Shown here: positions 49,568 through 56,640 of the stretch, piece by piece
Layout of the letters: every line of letters starts with the position of its first letter
Numbering within the stretch: position 1 is the stretch's first letter
Assembly: GCA_964016885.1 (NCBI GenBank)
Contig: OZ024742.1
Coordinates: forward strand, 108,438,001-108,502,000
From: Eledone cirrhosa
Lineage: Eukaryota
DNA: 64,000 nt
Direction: 5' to 3'
Made by a program: the position numbers and the translations under genes
Notes under the pieces: model-generated
Database searches by the model: none
Told to the model about the DNA's origin: nothing
Seen by the model: only the letters and a program-made list of their open reading frames with translations

Positions 49568-49609
49568 GCCGACAAGTCTTGTTTCGCTTTGGTTGAAGCT
49601 TATCAAGGC
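49568..49609 (-). ncRNA. hammerhead ribozyme with U3-A8 variant core
   Basis: GCC-TTGATAA-GCTT(CAACCA)AAGC-GAAA-CAA(GAC)TTG-TC-GGC. Confidence 0.8.
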
Positions 49610-49927
49610 CAACTACCCCTCCTGTCTACCGAGATCATTGATGTTATATTCTTATAGAAATCTAGTAAATAATCAGGAGCTGATTATGCAGAGCGGTTGT
49701 TGGTCAGGCAGAAATTAAAAATTAGAATTGGAGCTCTGAAATAGCAATATATATATGGATGTATATATAATGTATTTTGCAATACACTTTATGCACTTCA
49801 GAGCTCCAATTCTAATTTTTAATTTCTGCCTGACCAACAACCGCTCTGCATAATCAGCTCCTGATTATTTACTAGATTTCTATAAGGATATAACATCAAT
49901 GATCACGGTAGACAGAAGGGGTAGTTG

Positions 49928-49969
49928 GCCTTGATAAGCTTCAACCAAAGCGAAACAAGACTTGTCGGC
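49928..49969 (+). ncRNA. hammerhead ribozyme with U3-A8 variant core (inverted copy)
   Basis: GCCTTGATAAGCTTCAACCAAAGCGAAACAAGACTTGTCGGC read directly on the + strand. Confidence 0.8.
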
Positions 49970-50769
49970 TTATCTCCCCTGCTTGCTGAGATCAAAGTAA
50001 GTGAATTTGTCACTACTTTAAAACAATAGCTTACGGTCTTCAAAATGCTTTTAATTAAGCATAAAGTGTATTGCAAAATACATTATATATACATCCATAT
50101 ATATATATATATATACATACACATACACACATACATATACAAGTATATATATATACACATATACACATACATAAATACATATACACACATATATATATAT
50201 ATATACACGCACATAAATATATTTCCAAAACATATATAGATATATATTTACTCATGCAATTACGGGTGGTTGTGTTTTCTTGTTGCCTTTAGTCCTTAAC
50301 GCATAAATCTAAGGAATCTAAAACATTAAAAGGCAAAAAATAAGCATGAATGCATATAATTAGGGGAAAGAGGTACTAATAAATGTTACTCTATATGGAA
50401 TTATAGTGAGTTGCTATTTAGAATATTTAATTAGGTTTATAGTATTTAATTAGGTTTATAGTATTTAAATGTTTTTCGTATACGGTGATTACAAACTATG
50501 ATCAATTCCCGTCTTTTATTTAATAAATCGTCCTTAGATTTAGTAATTTCCAAATAGCTACAATGTATTATCATCATCTAGAAACGATCGTAAAGCAGTG
50601 AAGTCTATCTCTAATGACTTGATTTTTCATTTCATTGTTTTAACTTATATATATATATATATATATATATATATATATATATATATATATATATATATAT
50701 ATATATATATATATAGTATTGCGGAGTATTGCTTAAAGCTTTCTCTGTTAATGTATTAAATATATATAT

Positions 50770-51530
50770 ATAATACATTATAAAGAAAGAAGAAACATTA
50801 GACATAAATAAAAAATATATATAAATACCCAATATTCCTCTACATTCTCGACTACGCAGTTTCGTGGCTACTTTGCGAAAAACATTACAGGCGTGAGAGA
50901 ATTACCCGGAAAGGCGGAGGGGGAACTTATCACGCGATACAGCGGTCAAGAAACAGAGTTAAGCCTCATACAACCAAGAGGTAAATACCACAAATGGAGG
51001 GGGCATTAATAGCTAGCACCACACAAATTCAGAGATATATGTGTGTATATGCATGTATATGTATGTATTCGCATGTATCTGTGTATTTCTTTTTATTGTC
51101 TATAACTCCCTACGGTAGAGTAACCACTGGTATAGTGACTGCTGTCAAGCTTACACTATTTACACTTCTAGCCCTCCTTAGCCACCTCGTCTGTAGCCTA
51201 GATATTAATACCCCCTCCGTCATTTGTGGTTTTATTCTCTTGGTTGTAAGAGGCTTAACTCTGTTTCTTGACCGCTGTATCACGTGATAAGTTCCCCCTC
51301 CGCCTTTCCGGGATTCTCTCTCACGCCTTGCGGACGTGTTTTGAAACTTTAAATGAGGTATTCACTTGATAAGTTGGCAAACCTCACAAAAATACTGCAT
51401 CTCTATGATGTAATGTTTTTGCAAAGTAGCCACGAAACTGCGCAGTCGAGTATGTAGATGAATATTGGGTATTTATATATTATTATTTATTTATGTCTAA
51501 TGTTTCTTCTTTCTTTATAATGTATTATAT
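50770..51530. mobile_element. PLE-type pLTR inverted repeat with degenerate hammerhead (about 51400-51450, +)
   Basis: 50770-51016 is inverted to 51198-51530 apart from one indel; CAC-GAAA-CTGCGCAG-TC-GAG with a damaged CTC-TATGA core. Confidence 0.65.
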
Positions 51531-52446
51531 TGCTCTGATATTGAGTCAATCTAATTCATTCAGATTATTTTGTCCCTATTAATCATAGAGCAACAACGGT
51601 TAAGGTTGGCACCACACAAATTCAGAGATATATGTGTGTATATGCATGTATATGTATGTATTCGCATGTATCTGTGTATTTCTTTTTATTGTATATATAT
51701 ATATATATATATATATATTGTTATACTTGGGGAGGGTCATATTGTTGTAATAATATTGCCAGAATTAATAACAGAACACACTCACTGTATGTGTATATAT
51801 ATGTGTGTAATATATATGTTTGTATGTATGTACTTATTTGTGTATATGTTTTTTGCTGTACATATGTGTGTGTATATACGTATGTATATGTGTATATGTA
51901 TGTATGTATATATATATATATATATATTTTTTTTTTGTGTAATTGCTTACCACGTGTGTTTGTTTATTTTTATTTGTTTTTCCCTCTCTCGTATCGTTGT
52001 CAAAGTGCTATTTTTTCATTTTTTATTTTTATATTTGACTTTAATTATATTTTGCTTTTATTTATTTATTTATTATTATGACTTCATGTATATGTGTTTG
52101 TCTATGGCTGTTGATGTGACAGCATATTATTTTTTTATGTGTGTGTATATATATATATATGTATAATTGTGTGTGTGTGTGTGTGTGTGTGTGTGTGTGT
52201 GTATGTGTGTGTGTGTGCGTGTGTGTGTGTGTGTGTGTGTGTGTGTGTGTGTGTGTGTGTGTGTGTGTGTGTGTGTGTGTGTGTGTGTGTGTGTGTGTGT
52301 GTGTGTGTGTGTGTGTGTGTGTGTGTGTGTGTGTGTGTGTTATATACTTATTATCTATAAGCTTTTTTCTTCTTCCCTCAGCCTCACTTTCATATTTCTT
52401 ATATTGTTCTTTTAAAATCCCCTTTCAATAAAAACACCAGGATTTT

Positions 52447-52506
52447 TTTCATTCTGATGACTGAAAGCAGATTTGTTTGCTTTCAAGAAACCACTGGTAA
52501 ATGAAA
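52447..52506 (+). ncRNA. type I hammerhead ribozyme
   Basis: TTTCATT-CTGATGA-C-TGAAAGCA(GATTTGTT)TGCTTTCA-A-GAAA-CC(ACT)GG-TA-AATGAAA. Confidence 0.8.
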
Positions 52507-52757
52507 TAACTATCTTATGATGTTTATTACATAACTAATAAGCTCTGTAACCTACATAGAGCACTCTTTTTCCTGTACCTTTCCGACGGAATTACTTTAT
52601 TTATATATATATATATATAAATACTTACACATACACCCGAACTACTGACCAAATAATGTTTGGTATCAATGGGTTCAAGACATCTGTCAAATCAATTAGT
52701 GGTGAAGGTAGTGTATATATATATATATATATATATATATATATATATATATATATA

Positions 52758-54760: not shown

Positions 54761-55081
54761 ATTACTTCAAAATATTAATAAATATAGACATTCATGTGAT
54801 CAAATATATTTTATTATATATATTTGAGAGGTACTGAGCTATTTCATCAGTACGTCCTCATCAGATAAAATAAATTGATATCTGACATACCTCAACTGTG
54901 CTGATGGTTCAATACTGCCAAGACTGAAATTGAACCATCAGCGCAGTTGAGGTATATCAGACATCAATTTATTTTATCTGATGAGGACGTACTGATGAAA
55001 TAGCTCAGTACCTCTGAAATATGTATAATAAAATATATTTGATCACATGAATGTCTATATTTATTAATATTTTGAAGTAAT
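54761..55081. repeat. fold-back of family E pLTR with two opposed hammerheads
   Basis: arms of about 155 bp; the minus copy at about 54808-54871 has GAAA mutated to CAAA. Confidence 0.88.
54971..55034 (+). ncRNA. type I hammerhead ribozyme (family E)
   Basis: ATTTTAT-CTGATGA-GGACGTACTGA(TGAAATAGC)TCAGTACCTCT-GAAA-TATGTA-TA-ATAAAAT. Confidence 0.85.
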
Positions 55082-55168
55082 ATATATATATATATATATA
55101 TATATATATATATACATACGCACATACATATATATACATATAATATATATGTATGTATATGTATGTGT

Positions 55169-55385
55169 GGTCATTATTGAAAGTCTCTGGATGTCGCAAA
55201 ATACTTAATATTTTTTTATTGGAGAAGTTAAGATATTTTTCTGCAAAATTTTGATTTCCACTTATGTATTTTTTGAAAATGTTATTTATTCATCATAATA
55301 ATTAAATGATAGCATTCTTCATCGCCTAGTAGGGCCTCCTTCATCGCCTAGCAAACAATATTTTTAGACCCAGTCCGCCACTGTG
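55169..55385. repeat. dispersed repeat of about 220 bp, second copy at 61202-61425
   Basis: GGTCATTATTGAAAGTCTCTGGAT...CAATATTTTTAG...AGTCCGCCAC in both, each followed by (TA)n. Confidence 0.75.
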
Positions 55386-55687
55386 TGTATATATATATAT
55401 ATATATATATATATATATATATATATATATATATATATATATATATATATGTATATAATGCCAATCATTGTAAGTTTGAATGTAACTGACATGCAAAAAC
55501 ATATATATATATATGAATAAAGTAAGCCCAAACATAGTAGATTCAAATATCACAGAGAGAAAGAGAGAGAGAGAGGGGGGGATGAGGTGCAAAAGAAATT
55601 AAACATGGATTACAGATTAAAATATAGTCTAGATAGATGCGAAACAAAACGAGGATGTAGTTTATGGAACACCCAAATGATTTAGAA

Positions 55688-56103
55688 GTCGACCTTAAGT
55701 AGGAGCAATAACATTAAGAAAGACATGAACGACACCACATAATTTTGTTTTGAAAATTTTGAAAGTAGGTTTATAAGTATGAATTTTCATGAGATGTTCG
55801 TAGTTGTCTCTGTGGCCTAACGGTGGGTACTAGGGACGGTGAAAAACCTAGCTTTGCGTTCAATCCTGGTCAGGAGGTATATTTTTCAGTTTTTATTTTA
55901 CATCCCATAGAAAAAGAACTGAAAAGGTTTACCGGGAACCCTACTCCTGACTTGGATCGAACTTCAGACCGTCTATGAATCATCCAACTAAGCTGCCGAG
56001 ACAGCTACAAAAGTTTAATGAAAATTAATAATTATAAACCTACTTTCAAAATCAAAGTTACAAAGATGTGGTGTCGTTGATGGATTTCCTATTTAGGGTC
56101 GAC
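55688..56103. mobile_element. palindromic element containing two convergent tRNA-like sequences
   Basis: arms AACGACACCACAT...TTTTGAAAGTAGGTTTATAA / TTATAAACCTACTTTCAAAA...ATGTGGTGTCGTT; left GTGGCCTAACGGT...GCGTTCAATCC followed by T-runs; right reverse complement GCAGCTTAGTTGG...AAGTTCGATCC. Confidence 0.65.
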
Positions 56104-56266
56104 TTGTCAATCTTCTGGCTCTTTGGTAACAACCTTGTTATTCCTATGCATGTTTAATTGTTGAATTAATTTAATTTGATTATTTTAACAAGCAAATAAT
56201 ATATATATATATATATATATATATATATATATATATATATATATATATATATATATATATATATAT

Positions 56267-56640
56267 GAATGTATATATAGTGTATTTTGCAATACACTGT
56301 ATGCTTAATTAAAAGCATTTCGAAGACCTTATGTTATTGTTTTAGAGTAGTGACAGTCTCACTTACTTTAAATTTTCACCAAACAGGGGGAGATAAAGCT
56401 GACAGAGCTATGTTTCGTACTGATTGGTACTTATCAAAGCCAAGTACCCCACCTGTTTGCTGAAAATCATGAATGTTTGATTCTTATAGAATTTCTAGTA
56501 ATAATCAGGAACTGATTATACAGAGCGGTTGCCGGTCAAGCAGAAATTAAAAATTAGAATTGGCGCTCTGAAATAGCTATATATATATATGAATGTATAT
56601 ACAGTGTATTTTGCAATACACTGTATGCTTAATTAAAAGC
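56267..56640 (-). mobile_element. retrozyme-like element: 324-bp unit plus 50-bp terminal redundancy, abutting (TA)n
   Basis: GAATGTATATA(T/C)AGTGTATTTTGCAATACACTG at 56267 and 56591. Confidence 0.85.
56398..56440 (-). ncRNA. hammerhead ribozyme with U3-A8 variant core
   Basis: GCT-TTGATAA-GTAC(CAATCA)GTAC-GAAA-CA(TAGCTC)TG-TC-AGC. Confidence 0.78.

Follow-up and report, generated by a model that had tools for sequence, protein, structure and literature searches.

A retrozyme-type repeat family of Eledone cirrhosa with hammerhead motifs carrying a U3-A8 core pair

Variant hammerhead motifs in the window

The window analyzed here is a stretch of 64,000 nucleotides from the genome of Eledone cirrhosa (assembly GCA_964016885.1, contig OZ024742.1, positions 108,438,001 to 108,502,000). 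It contains copies of a repeat of about 316 bp that carries a hammerhead ribozyme motif with U3-A8 in place of the C3-G8 core pair. A descriptor scan found the core TTGATAA at 49571-49606 (-), 49931-49966 (+) and 56401-56437 (-), and TTTATAA, which has an additional G5U change, at 42044-42080 (-). The first-pass annotation had read these cores correctly, together with their differing but paired stems (stem II GCTT/AAGC, GTAC/GTAC and GCAC/GTGC; stem III CAA/TTG, CA/TG and CAG/CTG) and the GUC triplet (GTC in DNA) that ends each of them. The same descriptor gave no matches on 20 block shuffles of the window. Positions 49931-49937 show no other letter in sequence runs coded as three other organisms, but two of these have a depth under 3, and no weight is placed on them.

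The four motifs had been described as diverged copies of one subfamily, but they are not all independent. A single insertion, whose two inverted arms are 98.6% identical, accounts for both 49571 and 49931, and the number of independent insertions in the window is three. The left arm of the first, at 49405..49794 (-), comprises about 1.2 units of the U3-A8 repeat from the GCTT-stem subfamily, which is the youngest, and its ‘long’ 3' end abuts (TA)n; the right inverted arm, at 49797..50106 (+), has a ‘short’ 3' end that merges into (TA)n. The insertion at 56257..56640 (-) comprises about 1.2 units of the GTAC-stem subfamily and contains the core at 56401-56437. The third insertion, at 41875..42214 (-), belongs to the GCAC-stem subfamily, contains the core at 42044-42080 and has a short inverted 5' piece at 42215..42341 (+). 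Its TTTATAA had been listed with the TTGATAA copies; the G5U change is private to this copy, being absent from the other 29 loci retrieved alongside, and represents decay. The hammerhead of this copy is likely dead.

The motif has the architecture of a type I hammerhead, in which three helices surround the core, stems II and III are closed and stem I is open. The literal CUGANGA consensus is unmatched at positions 3 and 8, where the pair is kept as U-A. In the left arm, the hammerhead with its long outer stem spans 49545..49635 (-), carries G10.1-C11.1 next to the U3-A8 core, has a predicted cut after 49571 (GUC) and gives a folding z of -5.75. Its counterpart in the right arm spans 49902..49992 (+), with a predicted cut after 49966; its folding z is -1.27, and private changes weaken its outer stem.

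Fixation of U3-A8 in one clade

Genome counts were obtained by pattern searches of the 3.0-Gb assembly, using one pattern that covers the main subfamilies; the places listed for each pattern were the first 100, mostly on the first contigs. Exact U3-A8 matches numbered 3,167. In the same pattern context, another base was found at position 3 in 21 matches and at position 8 in 19, and C3-G8 was found nowhere in the genome. Reversed-pattern controls likewise gave no matches. The 40 single-change copies are scattered over the subfamilies, and none has been amplified. When 100 copies were picked by their flanks alone, 94 had both U3 and A8 and none had C3 and G8; conservation at the remaining core positions was 95-100%. 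One clade has U3-A8 fixed, as had been claimed in the first-pass annotation, and canonical cores form the majority of the superfamily. A genome-wide U3-A8 search had been set beforehand as the test of that claim, and by these counts the family consensus is not CTGATGA and TTGATAA is not sporadic.

Genealogy of the core change

The true C3-G8 parents of the clade are two subfamilies, neither of which is seen in the window. In the old subfamily (143 matches), C3-G8 occurs together with a closing pair of A-U or U.U, and 96 of the first 100 matches listed read CTGATGA. In the middle subfamily (111 rows), C3-G8 is combined with G7 and G10.1-C11.1 in 83 of the first 100 rows. The basal U3-A8 subfamily (34 of 37) retains the 5-nt loop of both. 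We rooted the tree on a 310-bp repeat family with canonical cores and built its final version without 36 partial matches, among which were the two C3.A8 copies retrieved for the middle subfamily. It nests the subfamilies in the order old, middle, U3-A8: the U3-A8 clade arises from within the middle subfamily with a branch length of 0.026 (support 100/97), and the two group together with support 98/87.

Between the middle and the basal U3-A8 subfamily, 11 of 234 columns differ, including positions 3, 7 and 8, and the other nine conserved core positions are spared. By simple arithmetic, 11 columns drawn at random would include both position 3 and position 8 with a probability of about 0.002. Among 65 rows there were three C3.A8 and two U3.G8 copies, which may be decayed copies or genuine intermediates. 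One copy (L253 = L303; C3, U7, C8, G-C) adjoins the U3-A8 clade with weaker support (91/74), and none of 40 rows showed U3-A8 where 10.1 is A or U and the old U11.1 is kept.

The double change to a complementary pair, the short branch, the fixation and the covariation of the stems together support selection for a working core. Selection on catalysis had been proposed from the window copies; they do not carry the argument alone, and it is the genome-wide fixation, the covariation and the short branch that point to it. In the history suggested by the tree, G10.1-C11.1 would have been gained under C3-G8, followed by one swap to U3-A8 from which every later subfamily descends. We offer more tentatively, as a possibility that we rather doubt, that the gain of G10.1-C11.1 was permissive for the swap and that the U3-A8 lineage then replaced its parents, rising from tens to thousands of copies.

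Stem covariation and core constancy

Covariation was scored in 63 of 64 independent insertions, one being unparsed and left out. Replacement of one Watson-Crick type by another, with few mismatches, is seen at three pairs of stem II, at the first pair of stem I and at one pair of stem III. Stem II pair 2 is CG in 43 and UA in 20 insertions, pair 3 is AU in 33 and UA in 30, and pair 4 is UA in 37 and CG in 25 with a single mismatch; the first pair of stem I is CG in 31, UA in 29 and unpaired in three. On the tree, the stem II changes appear as successive steps from GTAC through GCAC and GCAT to GCTT. In an alignment of 22 hand-picked, related rows, 98% of the cells pair. Both partners are replaced in five pairs, and in the outer stem five pairs vary by way of G-U. 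The unit set comprised 155 units thinned to 115, of which 29 were unclassified. The unpaired core is unchanged in all seven later subfamilies, whereas 12 of 22 stem columns changed.

Paired changes of this kind might also arise at the DNA level, if the repeat spread as a satellite or in the manner of a miniature inverted-repeat transposable element and its stems were altered by hairpin-templated repair rather than by selection on RNA. Short inverted repeats can template double changes, and long, near-identical tandem arrays are present. We nevertheless regard such an origin as highly improbable. The outer stem stays paired via its G-U wobbles, which points to RNA, and positions 3 and 8 do not face each other across a DNA hairpin. 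The insertions, moreover, have strand-specific ends, with a fixed 3' end at (TA)n and variable inverted 5' junctions, as in target-primed reverse transcription.

The host repeat as a candidate retrozyme

The U3-A8 repeat is non-coding, with a unit of 316-322 bp and a GC content of 0.34-0.35, and occurs singly, in partial tandems and in arrays with 316-bp spacing. The best matches of the youngest subfamily are 97-100% identical. Natural U3-A8 cut-to-cut monomers, folded as circles, gave z scores of -5.0 to -8.5 in 6 of 6 cases (40 block shuffles per monomer), with 57-65% of positions paired. The repeat thus shows the characters by which non-LTR (long terminal repeat) retrozymes are recognized: a non-coding unit of 150-450 bp with one type I hammerhead, dispersed and tandem occurrence, low GC and a predicted circle that is highly self-paired.

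The ends were surveyed at 54 loci that were the best matches to full units, a choice that favours complete ends. Two inverted arms were present in 28 of the 54, with one long and one short 3' end in 27 of these, and 71 of 81 insertion ends touched (TA)n. An inverted 5' arm, a one-sided tail and microsatellite targets are the marks of a non-autonomous partner of Penelope-like elements (PLEs). Measured from the predicted cut, the 3' ends are about 130-170 nt downstream, and the arms continue through the cut site, so the reverse-transcribed template was likely a circle or an uncut multimer and not a cut linear monomer. At one locus (L018, G000:C3:322193907-322197247), a U3-A8 arm runs straight into sequence of the 310-bp family at its (TA)n end; the two families can therefore nest at a shared target.

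Judging from these sequence features, we think it very probable that the repeat is a family of the non-LTR retrozyme type with more than 3,000 U3-A8 type I hammerheads, whose source elements likely still cleave themselves and are likely copied by PLEs. Tandem copies would be transcribed, and the hammerheads would cut after GUC. Stem III is palindromic, with predicted self-pairing at -7.3 to -8.9 kcal/mol, and dimers are therefore probably the form that cuts best. The monomers would be ligated into circles of about 316 nt, and a PLE reverse transcriptase with its endonuclease would prime synthesis at a (TA)n target that lies 130-170 nt downstream from the cut, then continue round the template. 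Most genomic copies would be passive and decaying.

Evidence on catalytic activity

Several observations weigh against a family that is still self-cleaving and copied by PLEs. The tree makes the swap a single event and, taken alone, the lack of core variation within the U3-A8 clade falls short of significance (0 of 11 core columns variable against 39 of 210 elsewhere; Fisher p = 0.22). Kinship among the rows of the 22-row alignment inflates its covariation counts. For monomers of the youngest subfamily, folding predicts a structure 5.6-6.5 kcal/mol more stable than the active-like one, in which U3-U4-G5 is sequestered in an alternative helix. The Rfam HH9 model gives the U3-A8 copies 27 bits (49545..49635, E 1.3e-4), 22.2 bits and 17.7 bits, all under the gathering threshold of 52 bits; with only 17 bits the canonical 310-bp copy does no better, so a low Rfam score does not single out U3-A8. 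No hammerhead was among the best 150 of 216 rows of a whole-window Rfam scan. Limited tests covering the window and one PLE-like family turned up no autonomous PLE whose ends match, and no homology of the repeat to a PLE pseudo-LTR was seen in the window or at 19 other loci of that family. Finally, a preprint on frog retrozymes (10.64898/2026.07.22.740005) observed cleavage in vitro for only one of nine predicted dimers.

The single event, the modest core statistic and the off-fold of the youngest subfamily would also suit a history in which catalysis was lost at or before the swap. The element would then have been kept for its hairpin shape, for example for recognition by a reverse transcriptase, and U3-A8 would be neutral and inherited; positions 3, 7 and 8 are close together, and one mutational event could change all three. 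We consider this loss unlikely, though less so than spread at the DNA level. The only conserved core positions changed between the middle and basal subfamilies are the two that pair, and they are now complementary. The unpaired core then stayed constant while the stems changed, and the single-change states were never amplified. Continued self-cleavage of the source elements remains our preferred reading.

We also considered whether U3 had been selected to create the inhibitory fold. This idea was rejected, since the effect of C3-G8 on the fold gap in silico was inconsistent in direction: the gap to the active fold was lower in the CAAG-stem subfamilies and higher in the CAGA and CAGG subfamilies. 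A separate complementarity was noted in the right arm of the first insertion, where GAUAAG at 49933-49938 (+), which includes U7 and A8, matches CUUAUC at 49968-49973 in the 3' strand of stem I. This pairing could be a further off-fold or a template for change; it is absent from the predicted minimum-energy folds.

Relation to known hammerheads and retrozymes

The first-pass annotation had implied that the U3-A8 core was new, and this does not stand. Covariation of C3-G8 to U3-A8 in several natural hammerheads was described by Perreault et al. (2011, PMC3088659), who cite their reference 32 for the activity of U3-A8 ribozymes in vitro. The variants presented there are scattered, with no within-genome genealogy apparent, whereas the Eledone family has one. 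About 1,300 U3-A8 hammerheads were reported from the Cercyon PLEs of Schistosoma mansoni, with a U3-A8 search descriptor already in use (Cervera and De la Pena 2014, PMC4209133). Cercyon shares with the Eledone repeat the core covariation, the high copy number and residence in an invertebrate retroelement. Its motifs, as described there, are minimal, heterogeneous, mostly single and located in PLE pseudo-LTRs (pLTRs); the Eledone motif, in contrast, is a full-size type I hammerhead in a retrozyme whose C3-G8 parent subfamilies are preserved. The swap itself is already published, and what is added here is the preserved subfamily steps before and after it.

The repeat resembles the metazoan non-LTR retrozymes in its non-coding tandem units (170-400 bp in those elements) with one type I hammerhead, low GC, thousands of copies, a self-paired predicted circle and co-occurring PLEs (Cervera and De la Pena 2020, PMC7229834). 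The axolotl Amex2 motif has a U.U closing pair, as do older subfamilies of the Eledone repeat. Metazoan retrozyme circular RNAs have been seen by northern blot (PMC7229834); for the Eledone family such circles are a prediction. A term search of the main text of PMC7229834 found no mention of the core variant or of octopus, and no U3-A8 retrozyme or cephalopod retrozyme appeared in the literature searched, a scope outside which subscription papers and supplements fell. PLE insertions can show an inverted 5'-truncated copy, a 30-40-bp tail at one end and microsatellite targets (Craig et al. 2021, PMC8557442). Partial tandems, the inverted 5'-truncated copy, the one-end tail of 30-40 bp and (TA)n are shared by the Eledone repeat with PLE insertions and PLE-derived retrozymes (PMC8557442; 10.64898/2026.07.22.740005). 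The frog retrozymes are homologous in sequence to pLTRs (10.64898/2026.07.22.740005), whereas limited tests on the Eledone repeat found no such homology.

Overall, the motif is likely functional as a hammerhead; its core variant and the class of element that carries it are known, and the family is new. This large family is missed by CUGANGA descriptors and by Rfam gathering scores, and invertebrate retrozyme counts may therefore be low. Its nested subfamilies provide natural before and after sequences for a compensatory change in a ribozyme active site, and allow a direct test of whether the surrounding helices decide tolerance of the 3-8 swap. PLE hammerhead variants are reportedly also the subject of work by Lunse et al. 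from 2017.

The 310-bp family and other elements of the window

Three tandem units of the 310-bp family lie at 38746-39714 (-), with canonical C3-G8 cores at 38884-38914, 39194-39224 and 39504-39534. They read CTGAAGA and have U10.1.U11.1, a palindromic ACGCGU stem III and a GUA triplet (GTA in DNA). The family had been called a sister subfamily with a canonical core; the core is as stated, but 91 of 218 non-core columns differ from the U3-A8 clade, and by this divergence the family is a distant cousin and not a sister. It has at least 16,983 units genome-wide, the first 100 listed being all C3-G8, and forms long, near-identical arrays with inverted halves. These units were located by pattern; a DNA search with the 310-bp unit, in which very common words are skipped, gave no matches. 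Position 7 (U/A) and the closing pair (U.U or A-U) vary within it. Seven further canonical CTGATGA hammerhead motifs were noted at 1033-1077, 4256-4301, 30181-30229, 35994-36042, 41624-41672, 47409-47477 and 54978-55027; most have a TATATA or TATGTA stem III, and they belong to at least three other repeat families.

PLE-like reverse-transcriptase fragments are located at 31261-32256, 33278-34153, 37588-38376 and 39735-40601, all on the (-) strand, and 43593-46548 (-) is presumably also a PLE, judged by its motifs. Pfam returned no families for six PLE-like frames, and a PDB search gave two short, weak matches only, of no use. The 39735-40601 family is old (80-83% identity, 2,481 first-look candidates). 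Its fragment at 39735-40560, beside the 310-bp array, was considered as a partner and rejected on account of this age and of repeat sequence in 0 of 19 other loci. A long interspersed nuclear element with endonuclease and reverse-transcriptase domains (Pfam RVT_1, E 1e-23) is split over two frames at 8297-10756 and 7606-8394 (-), and a 46-bp minisatellite of 29 copies with 95% matches occupies 11622-12972.

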